A stretch of 16,325 nucleotides of DNA from a virus (taxonomy: Duplodnaviria > Heunggongvirae > Uroviricota > Caudoviricetes), in the IMG/VR virus record IMGVR_UViG_2529292981_000039; one strand, given 5' to 3'. Position numbers and translations under genes: made by a program. Of this stretch, positions 2,795 through 16,325 are shown in pieces. Positions within the stretch are counted from its first letter, which is position 1; each line of letters opens with the position of its first letter. A model generated the notes under the pieces. The model saw nothing but the letters and a program-made list of their open reading frames with translations. It made no database searches and was not told the origin of the DNA.

Positions 2795-5456
2795 TTGCAT
2801 ATTCCTTAGCCCAGCGGGGCAGTGATAACGTCTTAATAGCTGGCCATTCATTGGTATTGAGGCAGTCAGCCAGGGTTCGCAGATTGCGGTGATATTCCAG
2901 CTGACCTGCCAGTTTTGCTTCTTCGCCCATCATGAAAATTTCAACCGGATAACGTCCGCATTCAATAGTTGTGCTGGCAACCAGAAAAACGAAAGTTGGC
3001 TGCACTCCAAACTGTGCTTCATAACCGTCACTGTAGAATGCATCCTGAACGTGATAGCGGTAGTCGTAATAAGCGGTTTTGAATCGTTGAATATCCGCCG
3101 TAGTTTTCACGTCCATGATCCAGTGAAATTCAGGGATAATTTTGTCCGGACGGCACCGACACAAAATTCCTGTTTCAGGATCTTCCCAGTAAATTGATGA
3201 TTCAGCGTGTCCGGCGCTTTCAACAAGCCATTGCCCCAGCGGCAAAGCCATAACGCTTTGATACATGAGTTCAATTTTCAGACCTTCTTCCGCAGTGATA
3301 ACCGTTTTTCCTGTGCTTGCGCATTCCATCAGAAACGCTTTCTCTTCTTCTTTTCCGGCGTTTGTACGGCGGTTAAATTCAGGTGCTACGATAAAGCGGT
3401 TACTGAATTCTTCCGGTTCAAGTACCCGGCAGTGGAAAGCGGTTCCTAAATCGAGCGTTTTTGTCTTTGTGTTGTCCACGGGGGCATTTTTACGCCACAA
3501 ATACAGTGCCGGAGTATCAGCAATGTCATCGAGCTGAGACTTACTGACACCGGGACCTACGTGGTAATTCTCATTCGAAATTCCGTAATAAATACCTGGC
3601 TCTATGTCTTCTACGATTACGGGATCTGCGACTTCGCCAGTTTCATCACTGCAATCGCGATGCGGATCGCTGCCAGCATTCTCATTGTGCGGATGTTCAG
3701 CGCCTTCCATTTCCTCCGGATCATTTTCCTTAGCTTCAACCTGATTCTCTTCATCGAATGTTTCCTGGTATGTTGCGTCGCCCATCACCGCGCCACAATC
3801 AGGGCAGTTGCCGCCACTCCTCTGGCCGCAGGCGGTGCAGATCTTTTCCGGTTCCTGTTGCACTACTGGTTCAGGTTGTTTCGTTTCTGGCTCGTTTTGT
3901 TGCGTATTTGGGCTGTTCTGTTCCGCTTTCTGGTCGTTCTGTTCCGTTTCTGGCTGATTCTGGTACACAGAATCGCGGGTCTGGATCCCCTTAATCCATT
4001 TCGGATCATTCGGGTCGCTAATCCCTTCAACAAATTCTCCGCGAGAGGCAGCCAGCAATTTGTCGGCATCGACAGGATTTTTGGGCGGAATGGTTTTCCG
4101 GGCTTCATGGAGTTCTGCCCGCAGTTTCTGATATTTCGCATCAACAGAATTTACCTGTGACTGAGCATCCAGCGGCTGCGTGTCCTGATGATGTTCAGTT
4201 GCATCCGGTTCCACTGTTTCAGCCGTTGCCTGTTTATCTGCCATTGCGCAAGATGGTTGCGGTTTTTCTTCACCATCGTGTTTTCCTTCTTCTGTTACAC
4301 GCTGCGGCATCGGGGCAGAGGAACGACCGCAGGCAATATCCACGATTTCCGGATCAGGGTTGGCATGATCGGTTTCAATCAGCACCTTGTTCAGATATTC
4401 AGTGACATGCGCAGGGATAACCTCGATCCCAATTGGTGCTTCTTTTACGGACGCAACCACGATGGCGCGGGAATAATCCAGCCCGCCAGGCATGGTGATG
4501 AATTTGTCGCGGAAAACAGAAAAGGGCGGTTTATTTTCAGCGATAATTTCCTCGACACGTTTAGCGTGTGCCGGATGAAGGTTATAAATATCCACATCCA
4601 TTGAACGGGCCAGAACGCCGGTGGCTACATCTCGTGCGAGTGATGTCTTATCATGTTTGAATCCTTCACCACGATCGGTAATATTTCCGCCGCCAGCGTT
4701 AGCGCCGGATGGCGTGCGGCTGATGCGTGAAACACGATTTCCTTTCATCCACTCTTTTGTAAGCAGACCGCGATCGGTGTAGTCAGCGCCCAGGTATGCT
4801 TCGATAAAAGAGGTCATCAGTCCCAGGTCCGAATTTACGGGGGCGGGGAAAACTTTGTCAGTGTCTCGCACCAGTTTGTACAAATCCCGAATCTCCAGCG
4901 GTTCGAGTTGCACTGCTTTATTTGAGATGGCCAGCGCGGTAACGGCGGGAAGTTTTTCATCCTGTGCGTTATGTAATGCGCGCAGTTTGTCCAGTGAAAC
5001 GTGCGTGAGCGGTTTTTCGCTGTTGTGTTGCGCCAGCCAGCGAACAGGCAGAATCTGACCTGAAACCGGAAGAAGCATATTCTCCTCAATCTTAGCCATG
5101 TCTTCGCCGTTGACGTTGGTATTGTCAGTACTGGCTGGTTTGTCCGGAACAGAGGGCGCGATAAGTATCATTGTGATACCATCTTCTCCGCCTTTTTCGT
5201 ATCGGTTGCAGAATTCAGTATCAAACACACCTTCCGGTGGAAGGTCATTCACAACGGGTAAATGGACGCGGATGGGTTTTTTAAAATCCTCTTCGTCAAA
5301 TCCGGCATCGTCCATTGCAGCAATGCAGCGTGAAACCGCAACAGAAAGTTTTTTTGCCTCTGTCCAGAAAAAGCCGCCTTTGATGCCGAGGCGTTTTCTG
5401 GTTTTATCATTTTTCGCGTCGCAATACAGAGCGTAATTTTCTTTATCAGTACTCAT
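2787..5456 (-). CDS. recE: RecE exonuclease VIII, 889 aa, with a divergent N-terminus and a low-complexity Q/E/P/N linker
   Basis: The central and C-terminal parts match K-12 RecE as I recall it (e.g. [51 protein letters not shown]); the C-terminal nuclease domain is present. Confidence 0.93.
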
Positions 5457-5974: not shown

Positions 5975-6529
5975 CTATTTAATACTCAGCAACTGCTCGA
6001 CGGTCATATTTTTAATTGCGCTTCGGTTTACAAGAGTCCAGCCCTGTTTCTCCAGATAAAGGCGGAAAGTGTCCAGGGTACAGACGAGAGCGCCATCAGG
6101 AACGGTTTCAGTGAATTCGACGTTGCCGAATTTGTCGAAGCGAACAACCAGAGTGCGCCCATCGCCCGGAATGATTTTGTTTGTGGGAGTGGTATTATTC
6201 TGGCGTAGCTCTGCTTCCATGCGGTCGAACTCAGCGATGTAGGCCTCTTTGAATGCAGCGGCTTTTTTGCCAGTGAAACCCATCACCAGGAAAACGAAGC
6301 CGTTTTTGGTGATTTGGTACATTGGGAGTTTGCGCCCGGTTGAGTCGGTGTATTCACTTGGCTTAAAATTAAGCTCAGTGAATTCTGAGGAACATTCCAG
6401 AGCTTCAATTTTTTGAATGACGTTTTTATGCAGCTTGCGGAAAAACTCTGCAACTGCAACAGACGTAGTGACAGCACGACCATTTTCGATGGTTACGTCA
6501 GGGTGAGAAAGGGTAGGGATAGTAGCCAT
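5975..6529 (-). CDS. Rha-family phage regulatory protein (antirepressor-like), 184 aa from MATIPTLSHPDVTIENGRAVTTS...
   Basis: The N-terminal region has the Phage_pRha signature (GRAVTTSVAVAEFF.K.H.NV...GFVFLVMGFTGKKAAAFKEAYI..F..ME). The track ORF extends in frame to 6823, but that extension is G/P/S/T/R-rich and contains a terminator-like hairpin, so I call the start at 6529. Confidence 0.7.
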   Translation of the reverse strand: MATIPTLSHPDVTIENGRAVTTSVAVAEFFRKLHKNVIQKIEALECSSEFTELNFKPSEYTDSTGRKLPMYQITKNGFVFLVMGFTGKKAAAFKEAYIAEFDRMEAELRQNNTTPTNKIIPGDGRTLVVRFDKFGNVEFTETVPDGALVCTLDTFRLYLEKQGWTLVNRSAIKNMTVEQLLSIK

Positions 6530-6703
6530 GATGGCAGCCTCTAGTGATAAGTTGGTAAACTCACCACCGGAGGTGCAAATCTCATGGGTGGTGAGACGTA
6601 CAGGGTTTGCACTACCGGTCACTAGAGAATCCGGCCCGCCCGAAAACGGCCCCATACGCCCCACCATAATCTGAATGTGGCTGCGCTTTACGCATAAAAA
6701 AAC

Positions 6704-6726
6704 CGCTTTGGCGCGGTTATGCGCTC
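6704..6726 (-). terminator. Candidate Rho-independent terminator on the minus strand (aaccgc-gccaaa-gcggtt followed by T7)
   Basis: 6-bp GC-rich stem, 6-nt loop and a run of seven T on the minus strand, read directly from the sequence. Confidence 0.5.
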
Positions 6727-7234
6727 TAGTGATCATCGGGGTGCAAATCCCGGCACCCGTTTTATGAGGTGCAGGTGCACTATAATTCCACCCGTTCTGG
6801 TTTTCAATAGCTACATCCAACATTTTCTCTCACCTTTCATCACTGAAGTGAACTTTGTTGATGCGGTGCCTGGTGCCTCCAGGTGACGTTAACCAGTTAA
6901 CAATTAACGCCGGATAATCCACCCATAACACTGATGCTTTTAACTGTGCCGCGTGCGCTCAGCCGCATTCACCGCATCACAAAATTCACTTTAAAAAGGG
7001 GCGGCAGGGCAGCCACGGAGTAGAACTGATGCCGCCAAGACTACACACAGCAATGTCGTTATTTACAACCGGAGGCGCACTCCCACCATTTAAATTTAAC
7101 AGACAAGACCGACTCTTTATGGATATCGGAAATGCGCCTTCGTGTTGTGCCCGGTTTTATTTCACCACCTCCGGGCTTTGGTGGCCTCGGCTATACCCCT
7201 ACAGCAAGAATATTGAATTAATCCAATAAATGGT

Positions 7235-7387
7235 TTAGCTGGTATTTTTGGCAAGCCAGCGACGTGCGCCAGCTTCGGTTTTAAACGATTTGCTTTTGGT
7301 ATACGTCATGGCGGTGAATGTGCCGTCCTGATTGGGAAACACGCCACATACCAGAGATTCGTTGTTGCCAAGATCGATAGTATCCAT
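7235..7387 (-). CDS. Small lambdoid early-left protein, 50 aa from MDTIDLGNNESL..., possibly YdaF/YdfA-like (DUF1391)
   Basis: GAGG lies 7 nt upstream of the ATG, and the gene sits downstream of the pL-like promoter. The family assignment is from memory and uncertain. Confidence 0.45.
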   Translation of the reverse strand: MDTIDLGNNESLVCGVFPNQDGTFTAMTYTKSKSFKTEAGARRWLAKNTS

Positions 7388-7567
7388 GTTGACCTCATTT
7401 CCCCTTAACGCCGGGTGGCGGAACGTTTTATCTACTGCGCTTTGTATCAATCAACAACTGCCGTCATGTTCGTATGCCTCAGGCTGGCTACTTAGCCCTG
7501 TTCAGTGGCTGGATAACTCGAGGTATTGTCCTGCCGTTCTCTGGTGGGGCGTTGTTTGGATATGCTT

Positions 7568-7609
7568 ATTAAACACAATGCGTTTTCTTGTGTCAACACG
7601 AAATGTGTT
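7568..7609 (-). promoter_or_regulatory. pL-like sigma70 promoter on the minus strand (-35 TTGACA at 7591-7596, 17-bp spacer, -10 TTTAAT at 7568-7573) with operator palindrome AACACgaaatGTGTT (7595-7609) overlapping the -35
   Basis: Motifs read directly from the sequence; the same AACAC-N5-GTGTT palindrome recurs at 8171-8185 in the cI/cro intergenic region. Confidence 0.55.
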
Positions 7610-7638
7610 TTGTGGTGGGTGTCATATGATGATGGTAC

Positions 7639-7663
7639 AAAAAAAGCCCGCTGATAGCGGGCT
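7639..7663 (-). terminator. Rho-independent terminator downstream of the repressor gene (gcccgc-tgata-gcgggc followed by T7 on the minus strand)
   Basis: Perfect 6-bp GC stem plus T-run on the minus strand, about 30 bp after the repressor stop. Confidence 0.65.
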
Positions 7664-7693
7664 GATTGGCATATTACTGTGATAGCAAGATCA

Positions 7694-8113
7694 TTACTCC
7701 GGTGGGGGATTATCTTTAAGCCTGCCTCTCAAATATTTTTCTACATACTCATCGATTTCTTTTAGCCGGACTTCAAATAGCTCAATCATTCGTTGTTGTT
7801 CTGAGCCCGGTAGCTGGTTAAACAACTCAAGAAGTTTTCGTTGGGATTCATTTAACCACAATTCAGAAGATTCCTGTTCTCCAAAGAGGAGCTCAGGAGG
7901 AGATATGCCAAGTGCCTTTCCCAATACGACAGCGTCATGCACTCCAACATTTCTGCTACCCGCCTCATAGTTACCTATACGCGATTGCGTCCATCCGCAG
8001 ATTTCAGCAAGTTTTCCTTGAGATAAACCAAGCTTCTGCCTGCGCTCTTTAAGACGCATTGCAATTTTGTCATTGAGCCTACTAGCGGCAATTTTTTCGT
8101 TTTCTTTTTCCAT
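7694..8113 (-). CDS. Prophage immunity repressor (CI-like, XRE-family HTH), 139 aa, with no LexA/S24 autopeptidase domain
   Basis: HTH motif (LGLSQGKLAEICGWTQSRIGNYEAG) near the N-terminus; divergent from a cro-like gene; too short, and without a Ser/Lys dyad region, to be a self-cleaving repressor. Confidence 0.85.
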   Translation of the reverse strand: MEKENEKIAASRLNDKIAMRLKERRQKLGLSQGKLAEICGWTQSRIGNYEAGSRNVGVHDAVVLGKALGISPPELLFGEQESSELWLNESQRKLLELFNQLPGSEQQRMIELFEVRLKEIDEYVEKYLRGRLKDNPPPE

Positions 8114-8209
8114 TGCATCCTTGTATCACGAATCGTGATTTACACAAAACACAAAACAGCTTGACCATATAACACAAGATGTGTTTAAAATTGTCATCGG
8201 AGGTTTTCA
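8114..8209. promoter_or_regulatory. Divergent repressor/cro promoter-operator region: perfect 15-bp palindrome ATCACGAATCGTGAT (8125-8139), palindrome AACACaagatGTGTT (8171-8185), candidate rightward -35 TTGACC (8161-8166)
   Basis: Palindromes read directly from the sequence. GGAGG at 8199-8203 precedes the cro ATG at 8210. Confidence 0.6.
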
Positions 8210-8452
8210 ATGAACAAAATTTCAACATATCGAAAACAGCTTGGGCTGTCTCAAAGACAACTTGCTGTTCAGTTAGGGTGGATACAAAGCCGACTGGCAA
8301 ATTACGAAGCAAATTTTCGTACCCCTGGACTAGAGGAGTGCAGAAAAATTGTTTCTACCCTTAATCGGCTTGGCGCTCATTGTGGACTTGACGATGTATT
8401 CCCCCCAGACGGTAAGCATAGCGAAAACAGCATAGGAGCGGTTGATTCATGA
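8210..8452 (+). CDS. Cro-like HTH regulator (YdaS-like), 80 aa
   Basis: HTH (LGLSQRQLAVQLGWIQSRLANYE); good RBS; first gene of the rightward operon, opposite the repressor. Confidence 0.8.
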   Translation: MNKISTYRKQLGLSQRQLAVQLGWIQSRLANYEANFRTPGLEECRKIVSTLNRLGAHCGLDDVFPPDGKHSENSIGAVDS

Positions 8453-8871
8453 AAATCAGGCATGAGCACATCGAATCAGTGCTGTTAGCCCTGGCAGCCG
8501 AAAAAGGGCAGGCGTGGGTCGCTAACGCAATTACTGATGAATATCTGCGCCAGGGGGGCGGCGAATTGCCCCTGGTACCAGGCAAGGACTGGAACAATCA
8601 GCAGAATATCTATCACCGTTGGTTGAAAGGTGAAACGAAAGCGCAAAGGGAAAAAATTCAGAAACTGATCCCTGCGGTTCTGGCAATTCTTCCGCGCGAG
8701 CTGCGTCACCGACTCTGCATCTTCGATACCCTGGAACGCCGTGCATTACTGGCGGCGCAGGAAGCGTTGAGTACGGCAATTGATGCGCATGATGATGCAG
8801 TCCAGGCCGTTTACCGGAAAGCACATTTCAGCGGTGGTGGGTCGCCCGGTGATTCTGTCGTAGTGCATTGA
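8449..8871 (+). CDS. ydaT: YdaT-like protein (CII-like regulator, formerly proposed toxin), 140 aa
   Basis: MKIRHEHIESVLLALAAEKGQAWVANAITDEYLRQGGGELPLVPGKDWNNQQNIYHRWLKG... matches Rac YdaT as I recall it; start overlaps the cro-like stop (ATGA). Confidence 0.8.
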   Translation: MKIRHEHIESVLLALAAEKGQAWVANAITDEYLRQGGGELPLVPGKDWNNQQNIYHRWLKGETKAQREKIQKLIPAVLAILPRELRHRLCIFDTLERRALLAAQEALSTAIDAHDDAVQAVYRKAHFSGGGSPGDSVVVH

Positions 8872-11939: not shown

Positions 11940-12034
11940 TGTTAGCGATACACATATCAATGTAGATAAATATGTATTGTGGTTAAAGTTTGTTCGACTG
12001 GTTGACGAATTCGTGAAATCCCCTAAAGATTAGG

Positions 12035-13852: not shown

Positions 13853-14031
13853 AATCATAATGGGTGCTTGAGGCTATCTGCCTCAGGCATGAACACCAAA
13901 AGGCAGATAGAGAAAAGCCCCAGTTAACATTACGCGTCCTGCAAGACGCTTAACATTAATCTGAGGCCCAATCTATGCTTCACAAACGTAGGTTAGCCTC
14001 TTACGTGCCGAAAGGCAAGGAGAAGCAGGCT

Positions 14032-14187
14032 ATGAAGCAGCAAAAGGCGATGTTAGTCGCCCTGATCGTCATCTGTTTAACCGTCATAGTGACGGCACTG
14101 GTAACGAGGAAAGACCTCTGCGAGGTACGAATCCGAACCGGCCAGACGGAGGTCGCTGTCTTCACAGCTTACGAACCTGAGGAGTAA
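14032..14187 (+). CDS. hok: Hok/Gef-family type I toxin (HokD/RelF-like), 51 aa (MKQQKAMLVALIVICLTVIVTALVTRKDLCEVRIRTGQTEVAVFTAYEPEE); the in-frame upstream extension from 13975 may be a mok-like leader
   Basis: Almost identical to chromosomal Hok toxins as I recall them; single transmembrane helix; followed by a terminator hairpin. Confidence 0.88.
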   Translation: MKQQKAMLVALIVICLTVIVTALVTRKDLCEVRIRTGQTEVAVFTAYEPEE

Positions 14188-14277: not shown

Positions 14278-14462
14278 GTTGCGCGCTGAATGCGCAGGGT
14301 GAAAAATAACCATATATTTGATTATATACACAACAAAAAATAAAAGTCATTGTACCTGCACATTAAATAATCAAATATACGGCGTGAAATAAATATTTTT
14401 CAGATTAATATTTTTGTCTCTATGTGGATATAACCGTTTGTACTTATAAACTCGGAGGCATC

Positions 14463-14675
14463 GTGGAAAAAATAAAGAAACTATTTAGTTGCAAATACGC
14501 AGTCATACGTCGTGATGACCTGTCAGTTATAGTCGAAATGGATTACTTCCCTGAAACCCCAAAATCAATGATGTATCGTAATGGTCGAAAGGCAATTTTT
14601 TTACCGATGAGGGTAAGTGACATTATGGGAAATGATAAACTGCTGGATGAATTGCGAGTCAGAGCATCCTGTTAG
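14463..14675 (+). CDS. Hypothetical small protein, 70 aa, GTG start (alternative GTG at 14424)
   Basis: GGAGG lies 4 nt upstream of the GTG at 14463; preceded by an AT-rich promoter-like region; no recognisable motif. Confidence 0.4.
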   Translation: MEKIKKLFSCKYAVIRRDDLSVIVEMDYFPETPKSMMYRNGRKAIFLPMRVSDIMGNDKLLDELRVRASC

Positions 14676-15723: not shown

Positions 15724-16050
15724 ATGACTAAAAATACTCGTTTTTCCCCCGAAGTCCGTCAGCGGGCGATTCGTATGGTTCTGGAAAGTCAGGATGAATA
15801 TGACTCACAGTGGGCGGCAATTTGTTCCATTGCCCCAAAGATTGGCTGTACGCCGGAGACTCTGCGTGTCTGGGTTCGCCAGCATGAGCGGGATACCGGG
15901 GGCGGTGATGGTGGGCTCACCAGCGCTGAACGTCAGCGTCTGAAAGAGCTGGAACGTGAAAATCGTGAACTGCGCCGCAGTAACGATATCCTTCGCCAGG
16001 CTTCCGCTTATTTTGCGAAGGCGGAGTTCGACCGCCTCTGGAAAAAATGA
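15724..16050 (+). CDS. IS629-like transposase OrfA (HTH and leucine-zipper part), 108 aa
   Basis: [60 protein letters not shown]... matches IS629 OrfA as I recall it. Confidence 0.9.
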
Positions 16051-16325
16051 TGCCACTGCTGGATAAGCTGCGTGAGCAGTACGGGGTCGGACCGGTATGC
16101 AGCGAACTGCATATTGCCCCGTCAACGTATTACCATTGTCAGCAACAGCGACATCATCCGGATAAACGCAGTGCCCGTGCGCAGCACGACGACTGGCTGA
16201 AGAGAGAGATACAGCGCGTATACGATGAAAATCATCAGGTGTACGGTGTGCGTAAAGTCTGGCGTCAGTTGTTACGGGAAGGAATCAGGGTGGCCAGATG
16301 TACAGTGGCACGTCTCATGGCGGTT
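16047..16325 (+). CDS. IS629-like transposase OrfB (DDE catalytic part), 5' portion only; truncated by the window end
   Basis: Begins [30 protein letters not shown]... in the -1 frame relative to orfA, overlapping the AAAAAA slippery run at the orfA end. Confidence 0.85.

Follow-up and report, generated by a model that had tools for sequence, protein, structure and literature searches.

Lambda-like left and right operators predicted around a DicA-family repressor gene in the Rac-locus prophage of Escherichia coli O157:H7

Repressor locus and flanking palindromes

The window is a 16,325 nt stretch of DNA (IMG/VR record IMGVR_UViG_2529292981_000039, Caudoviricetes) and has a prophage repressor gene with matching palindromes on both sides. 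The repressor gene (positions 7694–8113, minus strand) encodes a protein of 139 aa, WP_000410105. A Cro-like gene of 80 aa (positions 8210–8452, plus strand), whose product is WP_001033914, is divergent from it, with a gap of 96 bp between the two. Positions 7567–8209 very probably represent the immunity cassette of a lambdoid prophage, in which a DicA-family repressor gene is located between two operator clusters. The 1.6 kb around the repressor gene is 100% identical in complete chromosomes of E. coli O157:H7 and related Shiga toxin-producing E. coli, and sequence comparison identifies the window as the Rac-locus (ttcA-integrated) prophage of E. coli O157:H7.

The repressor has a helix-turn-helix (HTH) domain (Pfam HTH_3, E = 5e-13) with the recognition helix GWTQSRIGNYE, and the conserved helical C-terminal domain of the DicA family. 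Identity to DicA of the K-12 Qin prophage is 29% over residues 14–135, i.e., over both domains (BLASTP, E = 2e-15), and the aligned region includes the LELFNxLPxSEQ motif. Pfam gives only HTH families for the protein, and an S24 peptidase domain with an Ala-Gly cleavage site was not found in it. An AF2 model (pLDDT 85) displays a five-helix HTH followed by a short helix and then a long helix; the C-terminal 50 residues form two helices. The modelled HTH superposes on C.AhdI, the operator-bound P22 c2 and the 434 repressor with an rmsd of 1.0–1.2 Å, and its aa identity is 30–42% to the C.AhdI and P22 c2 chains and 39% to the 434 repressor DNA-binding domain. In a Foldseek comparison with the PDB only the HTH domain is matched, with no match for the C-terminal domain. 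A first-pass annotation of the sequence had called the immunity region Rac-type. This label is not upheld: the repressor and RacR show no significant similarity (best local alignment E = 2.0), the window has no copy of the RacR operator TAGGC-n3-GCCTA, not even one with 1 mismatch, and the identity found is to DicA. As judged from its sequence, the repressor is a DicA-family protein and not RacR.

The Cro-like protein also belongs to Pfam HTH_3. Its recognition helix, GWIQSRLANYE, is of the same type as that of the repressor, and identity to the repressor HTH domain is 45%. The closest solved relative is chain 28tn_A, a 'lambda repressor-like protein'. There is no detectable similarity to DicC and none to YdaS.

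The palindrome AACAC-N5-GTGTT is present exactly twice in the 16,325 bp, as AACACgaaatGTGTT (positions 7595–7609) and AACACaagatGTGTT (positions 8171–8185), with one copy in each intergenic region beside the repressor gene; both copies and their positions agree with the first-pass annotation. The form A.CAC-N5-GTG.T is present exactly three times in the window, and all three copies are within the intergenic regions that flank the repressor gene. In all likelihood both operator clusters are built on one 15-bp motif, xxCAC-N5-GTGxx.

The left cluster (OL) has two sites. OL1, AACACaatgcGTTTT (positions 7572–7586), is a 9/10 match and spans the spacer of the predicted leftward promoter PL plus 2 nt of its −10. 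OL2, AACACgaaatGTGTT, is perfectly palindromic and overlaps the PL −35 by 2 nt, its last two positions being the first two of that hexamer. The right cluster (OR) has three sites. OR3, ATCACgaatcGTGAT (positions 8125–8139), is a perfect 7+1+7 palindrome that overlaps the spacer and −10 of the putative repressor promoter PRM. OR2, AACACaaaacAGCTT (positions 8148–8162), is a weak match of 7/10; its final 2 nt coincide with the first two positions of the −35 of the predicted rightward cro promoter PR, and it abuts the presumed PRM −35. OR1, AACACaagatGTGTT, is a perfect palindrome and covers the PR spacer and the first 2 nt of the −10, which bears out its earlier placement over the cro promoter. 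OR2 and OL1 are weaker sites that had not been noted before.

The centres of the sites are at 7579 and 7602 on the left and at 8132, 8155 and 8178 on the right, each interval being 23 bp. The geometry at PL and PR is alike: one site ends 2 nt inside the −35, a 4-nt gap follows, and a second site fills the remaining spacer plus 2 nt of the −10. OR3 is exactly 46 bp (2 x 23) from OR1 and has the same CAC-N5-GTG core. ATCACgaatcGTGAT had been described as a different palindrome, perhaps the site of a second regulator. It is indeed a perfect palindrome, but not of a different kind, since the 23-bp phasing and the shared core make it the third site of OR and a member of the same family; a preference of Cro for this site is possible.

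To assess chance occurrence, the intergenic regions of 243 and 96 bp were simulated 40,000 times under a first-order Markov model. A perfect 5-N5-5 palindrome with the same half-site in both regions was obtained in 9/40,000 simulations. The motif with up to 3 mismatches is found at 74 of about 16,300 window positions, and the chance of such a site at the exact midpoint of OR1 and OR3 is about 0.005. For a site with at most 1 mismatch located 23 bp from a perfect one, the chance is about 6e-5 by our own calculation. OR2 is the least certain of the five sites. Its sequence is identical in the Salmonella locus L024, and relatives match at 5–9/10 positions there. A tandem 7-mer, ACACAAA ACACAAA (positions 8142–8159), contributes AACAC to OR2 and places a further copy, TACAC, 7 bp to the left of it; this copy is not kept in L024, which has TACGC.

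A further pair of half-sites, ACGAATTCGT (positions 12005–12014), had been listed as related and is rejected. It is present, with arms GAC-N6-GTG, and thus has the wrong spacing and no CAC-N5-GTG core. Its frequency is at chance level, as the window has 10 perfect 10-bp palindromes including this one where about 16 are expected by chance.

Conservation of the operators in related loci

A protein search reveals a large repressor family in Enterobacterales, from which a family alignment was built. Loci with a repressor of the same HTH type, 21 in number, were collected from genome contigs and by exact-protein look-up. A tripartite OR is present in 19 of the 21, with OR3 located 26–27 bp before the repressor ATG and with spacings of 23–25 bp. 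One phage genome besides these loci, an apparently intact phage of 47.5 kb, has the same layout. Most relatives also display a matching OL of two or three sites around a TTGAC −35. A two-site OL with 23-bp spacing is found in L002, L003, L008, L031 and L032 as well. In L005 about 1.1 kb of extra DNA is present between the repressor gene and PL, and OL remains with PL.

The half-sites fall into classes that follow the recognition helix of the repressor. Class A (10 loci) has the helix GW[TAV]QSR[IV]GNYE and half-sites AACAC/GTGTT. Class B (7 loci and phage pPE4) has GWS[GT]xxRxANYE with TTCAC/GTGAA, or CTCAC. A third class (2 loci) has the helix GWATASRVGNYE with GACAC/GTGTC. The class is the same at OR and OL except in L007, where the contig is cut off, and L034, where no OL site was found. 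L035 and L036, retrieved only once the classes were in place, both match the class predicted by their helix.

Of the 10 class A loci, with the window counted among them, 8 have a perfect OL2 site at the equivalent position; the other two are L034, which has no such site, and L007, where the end of the contig cuts the region off. No convincing third OL site was seen 23 bp upstream of OL2, either for the window or for the other class A loci; class B loci do carry one. At OR1 in class A (ten loci), half-site conservation is 100%, compared with a pairwise identity of 44% in the N5 spacer and 51–70% in the flanks. The same pattern of invariant half-sites with drifting spacer and flanks extends over Escherichia, Salmonella, Citrobacter, Serratia, Klebsiella and others. 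The OR3 equivalents, 26–27 bp before the repressor ATG, are AACAC-N5-GTGGT, TTCAC-N5-GTGAT or GCCAC-N5-GTGGT.

Three loci are off the full pattern, i.e., L029 and L030 from Yersinia and L009, and have half-sites only or another context. L009 is without a divergent cro and without a tripartite OR. In some relatives (L009; L034, positions 2925–4082) a gene with an HSDR_N domain directly follows the repressor gene, at the usual place of OL and PL.

Eleven further relatives (L011–L020 and L022, repressor at about 2440–2870) are domain-shuffled and combine the conserved C-terminal helical domain with an unrelated HTH, ISKADMARIAGVTPQAVNGWF. No CAC-N5-GTG core is found upstream of these genes. Other palindromes are present there, e.g., GTAAAC-N5-GTTTAC in L015 and L017, 26 bp before the ATG, which is the position of OR3. 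Co-variation of the half-sites with the helix, together with the absence of the core from loci with another HTH, is the pattern expected of operators that are read by the repressor HTH. Recurrence of the layout and the change of half-sites with the helix thus substantiate the earlier comparison with the lambda oL and oR. With a high degree of confidence, we interpret the matching palindromes as sites bound by a prophage repressor of the DicA type and by its partner Cro, arranged as left and right operators like those of lambda.

It is highly improbable that the palindromes resemble each other by chance, or that they were left behind by duplication of a promoter cassette and have no function in a cryptic prophage that has decayed. 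In favour of such a view are the defective state of many O157:H7 prophages, the imperfect −10 hexamers and the weakness of OR2. In addition, the two promoters PL and PR are alike at about 29/50 positions by our own count, and common descent could explain some of this similarity. Neither chance nor decay would fit well with the simulation estimate given above or with half-sites that stay invariant across several enterobacterial genera while spacer and flanks drift. The layout is moreover found in the apparently intact phage, and the exact module is present in 153 of 5,426 complete E. coli genomes at a coverage of at least 80%.

Exchange of the repressor cassette

Phage pPE4 (PP818812, L039; 47.5 kb) matches the window without differences up to about position 7566, and identity resumes at position 8210 with the cro start codon; the two Cro proteins agree at 80/80 residues. 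Between these points positions 7567–8209 of the window are swapped for positions 1666–2285 of pPE4, so that the repressor, the terminator and all operators are replaced. Both mosaic boundaries are sharp, the left one being at the PL −10 and the right one at the cro start codon. The pPE4 repressor is 64% identical to that of the window and has the helix GWSGSSRIANYE, and the pPE4 operators are of the CTCAC, TTCAC and ATCAC types. A similar pair is found in Salmonella, where L024 and L026 have an identical 84-aa Cro but repressor and operators of class A and class B, respectively. The exchangeable unit therefore consists of OL/PL, terminator, repressor and OR, with cro excluded, and the outer half-site bases follow the repressor and not Cro.

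These exchanges bear on the question of which protein reads the sites. The Cro recognition helix is of the same type as that of the repressor, and the assignment of the sites to either protein comes from sequence comparison. The palindromes could accordingly be regulatory and be read by the Cro-like protein alone, or by a host transcription factor, instead of the 139-aa repressor. Since the half-sites of OR1 and OL switch from AACAC to CTCAC or TTCAC with the repressor while Cro is constant (window and pPE4; L024 and L026), this reading is largely excluded, and we consider it very improbable. The sites also travel with the repressor cassette, within the sharp boundaries at about 7566 and 8209. 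To our knowledge the motif matches no common E. coli host-factor consensus; e.g., CRP has TGTGA-N6-TCACA, with arms in the opposite orientation.

OR3 is the only window site with xTCAC on both halves. The ANYE helix of the window Cro resembles class B repressors, which use xTCAC, and all OR sites of pPE4 and L026 are xTCAC, these two having the Cro of the window and of L024, respectively. A weak YdaT-like match, GTGATTtacacaAAACAC (3 mismatches), overlaps the OR3 edge. The ATCACgaatcGTGAT site might thus be read only by a second regulator, Cro-like or YdaT, and OR would then consist of two repressor sites and one foreign site. This is unlikely, although less so than the reading by Cro or a host factor alone. 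OR3 has the same core and length as the other sites and is phased at exactly 23 bp with OR2 and OR1, and the equivalent site in most class A relatives, AACAC-N5-GTGGT, differs from the repressor consensus by a single base. In L034, Cro has the ANYE helix and yet OR3 keeps the AACAC/ACCAC form. In the lambda, P22 and Qin-type switches all sites are common to both proteins. The footprinted YdaT box is a different motif with N6 spacing (PMC11879457).

Preferences may nonetheless differ between the two proteins. The residue before NYE tracks position 2 of the half-site, i.e., G with A, A with T and S with C. L034 is an exception to this pairing, which draws on four or five independent lineages. 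We tentatively propose that this residue sets half-site position 2, so that the AACAC sites would be those of the repressor and OR3 (ATCAC/GTGAT) would be tuned to Cro, whose gene lies outside the exchanged cassette. If true, the cassette would be an asymmetric hybrid switch, and a specificity rule of one residue and one base could be used to reprogramme immunity.

Promoters and proposed mechanism

PL is predicted on the minus strand from a −35 TTGACA (positions 7591–7596) and a −10 TTTAAT (positions 7568–7573) at a distance of 17 bp, both as read from the sequence. The match to the consensus is 11/12. The one deviating base is the second of the −10, where a conserved A is normally present, and because this A is missing PL is absent from the promoter scan list. 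The overlap of the left palindrome with TTGACA-17-TTTAAT is as the first-pass annotation stated, but 'near-consensus' was optimistic for a promoter with this −10. In relatives the −10 of PL at the equivalent position is TTTAAT, TTTAAA or TTTAAC. TTGAC follows the OL half-site in the 13 relatives for which the OL region is displayed, and in L026 it is upstream of a single OL site.

The predicted PR −35 is TTGACC (positions 8161–8166, plus strand), also read from the sequence. All ten class A loci have GTCAA here (TTGAC when read along the cro strand). The candidate −10 region is at 8184–8191 on the plus strand, with TTTAAA (8184–8189) at 17 bp or TAAAAT (8186–8191) at 19 bp. A candidate PRM −10, TACAAG (positions 8120–8125, minus strand), is 6 nt before the repressor ATG at 8113, and in relatives OR3 is followed directly by TAAAAT, TAGAAT, TAAGAT or TAAAAA, 6–7 nt ahead of the ATG. 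The sequence suggests a weak PRM −10 and, because this element is only 6 nt before the ATG, a leaderless or near-leaderless repressor transcript. The lambda cI mRNA is leaderless. At its other end the repressor transcript would be terminated ahead of OL and PL by an intrinsic terminator (positions 7645–7663, minus strand) found by a terminator scan, with an 8-bp stem of which 6 pairs are G-C, followed by a T run. A similar hairpin and T run follow the repressor gene in most relatives.

In the proposed mechanism, repressor dimers would bind the AACAC/GTGTT sites through the helix GWTQSRIGNYE, probably cooperatively, as the spacing is roughly two turns. We infer this binding and cooperativity, and the use of the promoters, from sites, spacing, conservation and co-variation with the proteins that are themselves observed. 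At PR as well as PL the sites cover the −35 edge, the spacer and two bases of the −10, so that RNA polymerase would be excluded and thereby blocked from the cro-ydaT operon and from the leftward ydfA-dicF-kilR-recET operon. OR2 adjoins the presumed PRM −35 and could activate PRM, as DicA and lambda CI do. OR3 overlaps the weak repressor promoter, and repressor synthesis would be turned off once this site is occupied, either by surplus repressor or, with greater likelihood, by the Cro-like protein. Because the repressor has no S24 domain a RecA-cleavage route is not expected, and induction would occur via an antirepressor or switch noise.

Several points weigh against this interpretation. Neither of the predicted −10 hexamers, TTTAAT of PL and TTTAAA of PR, has the conserved A at its second position or is called by the scan, and OR2 matches at only 7/10 positions. 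Just before the repressor ATG is an AAGGA sequence that resembles a Shine-Dalgarno sequence and is equally compatible with a leadered and a leaderless transcript; only mRNAs initiated farther upstream, e.g., at a YdaT-dependent promoter, would make use of it. The related loci are not phylogenetically independent, and about four or five lineages underlie the co-variation. It is also possible that the prophage is cryptic, and the switch could then have decayed in part. No report of binding, footprinting or transcription starts was found in literature on the module (CP-933R repressor, DicA in O157).

Downstream of cro is ydaT (positions 8449–8871, plus strand; Pfam YdaT_toxin), a functional analogue of CII whose product is 94% identical to YdaT of K-12 Rac. 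The sequence TTGATTcatgaaAATCAG (positions 8442–8459) spans the ydaT start codon and is a predicted YdaT box. It is one base off at each end from the K-12 Rac box ATGATTCATGAAAATCAA, which YdaT footprints at the same place at the ydaT start (PMC11879457), and it has 1 mismatch to the site TTGATT-N6-AATCAA that CP-933P YdaT binds at the ydaS/ydaT junction (PMC9986795). Positions 8442–8459 probably represent the site of the CII analogue at a PRE-like promoter.

Comparison with other prophage switches

The first-pass annotation treated the lambda-like oL/oR arrangement as one not known to have been defined for Rac-type immunity regions. Such arrangements have in fact been described for dicA/dicC/dicBp of Qin (PMC10448788, PMC3441716) and for CP-933P (PMC8630535), and a tripartite OR for K-12 RacR (PMC9638921).

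In Qin, three operator-like sequences are located on each side of dicA, and DicA, which binds Oc TTGTTAGTCATAACTAACAA, acts as a repressor of dicC and dicBp and as an activator at its own weak promoter (PMC3441716, PMC10448788). The window resembles Qin in having a homologous short repressor without a RecA-cleavable domain, divergent repressor and cro-like genes, operator clusters on both sides of the repressor gene, and a leftward operon that begins with a DUF1391 gene (ydfA) and contains DicF. The operators differ: Oc TTGTTAGTCATAACTAACAA is unrelated to AACAC-N5-GTGTT, and the K-12 dicA flanks have repeats of the TTGTTAG/CTAACAA type in place of it, so that the window does not have the DicA operator specificity. 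The window Cro is not similar to DicC, ydaT follows cro, and the prophage is at the Rac (ttcA) site with recET and kilR.

The likeness to lambda consists of a tripartite OR between divergent repressor and cro genes with a spacing of about 23–24 bp, OR1 and OR2 over PR and OR3 over PRM (promoters that are predicted in the window), a terminator after the repressor gene followed by OL/PL, and a CII analogue downstream of cro; a leaderless repressor mRNA is plausible here as well. Unlike lambda, the window repressor has no S24 autocleavage domain, the predicted operators are 15 bp (5-N5-5) instead of 17 bp, OL has two clear sites instead of three, and the OL-OR distance is about 0.57 kb compared with 2.3 kb.

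For the PaaR2/YdaS/YdaT switch of CP-933P, OR and OL were mapped through footprints and reporter assays, the promoter elements of PR and PL are identical, and experiments showed the paaR2 mRNA to be leaderless (PMC8630535). This switch has the gene order repressor, divergent Cro-like gene and ydaT in common with the window, and a YdaT box at the cro-like/ydaT junction that matches 8442–8459. Its operators, however, are 18-bp repeats with the consensus GTTTAGTAA (PMC8630535), and its repressor operon includes paaA2-parE2, whereas in the window the repressor gene is followed by a terminator, without toxin-antitoxin genes. The window YdaT is distant from that of CP-933P (E = 3e-6 to 8bt1). The window is set apart from PaaR2-type switches by gene content and operators.

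K-12 Rac is at the same chromosomal locus and has the flanking intR, recET, kilR, ydaT and ydaU-like genes, the nearly identical YdaT and a tripartite OR in common with the window. Its three RacR operators have the consensus (T/A)TAGGC-n3-GCCTA(T/A) (PMC9638921). The K-12 Rac immunity cassette has been replaced in the window prophage. The 434 repressor, P22 c2 and the C proteins have the five-helix HTH fold of the repressor model but other oligomerisation domains and half-site sequences. C.Csp231I recognises CTAAG-n5-CTTAG, with the same 5-N5-5 geometry (PMC9638921), although C proteins govern restriction-modification operons and not prophage immunity.

The arrangement itself is therefore of a known kind, a sound but ordinary example of a well-known genetic switch, and it leaves the understanding of how such switches work unchanged. 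The operator consensus and the three half-site classes appear not to have been described before. They provide a base-by-base operator map for the immunity switch of the O157:H7 Rac-locus prophage, and this map extends to widespread DicA-like repressors in Salmonella, Klebsiella, Citrobacter, Serratia and others. Repressors of this kind would keep the recET recombination genes silent, together with genes that are toxic or affect cell division (kilR, dicF, ydaT). The classes may allow prediction of homo-immune prophages and offer a simple system for the study of HTH specificity change.

Prophage setting and RNA motifs

In NZ_CP066753 the module is within a prophage integrated beside ttcA, with the gene order intR, xisR, ralR, recT, recE, kilR, Rha/Ash protein, DUF1391 protein, HTH repressor, HTH cro-like, ydaT and replication genes. 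The first gene downstream of predicted PL is a ydfA/ydaF-like DUF1391 gene (positions 7235–7387, minus strand; Pfam E = 8e-29, and so annotated by RefSeq in the identical O157:H7 record). Both this gene (by Pfam) and DicF (by Rfam) are downstream of PL.

A PL leader of about 175 nt (positions 7388–7562, minus strand) separates PL from the DUF1391 gene. Its last 50 nt resemble the ydfA leader of K-12 Qin. One version of the leader is common to the window and Salmonella L024 and L026. Another conserved noncoding stretch, beginning GTCATCAAGGCAGGACGCCCACGAAGTAGCTGCCGGCGGCATACGAA, is downstream of OL in L002, L003, L004, L006, L008, L010, L027, L028, L032, L033 and L036. The window leader has no Rfam match and folds no better than shuffled sequence (z = 0.8), and its consideration as a put-like antiterminator or structured RNA was dropped on account of this fold score. 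An Rfam scan of the whole window finds no RNA family within 7560–8209, and a permissive search of 7380–7700 gives only sub-threshold matches, on the terminator hairpin.

Elsewhere in the window several RNA families match at the Rfam gathering level. In the leftward operon below predicted PL these are DicF (positions 6999–7049), isrK (6696–6772) and C4 antisense RNA (6584–6671), all on the minus strand, and the isrK and C4 matches are inside the 5' part of the annotated Rha/Ash ORF (5975–6823). This ORF is a candidate for an antirepressor-type protein that would induce a non-cleavable repressor. Another ORF, 14424–14675 (83 aa), was considered as a Rem-type antirepressor and rejected, as it has no similarity to Rem. 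On the plus strand, RalA antitoxin RNA (1557–1735) adjoins ralR and sok antitoxin RNA (13862–14037) adjoins hokD. An ALIL frameshift pseudoknot (16005–16121, plus strand) also matches at this level, which implies that the right end of the window has an IS3-family element.

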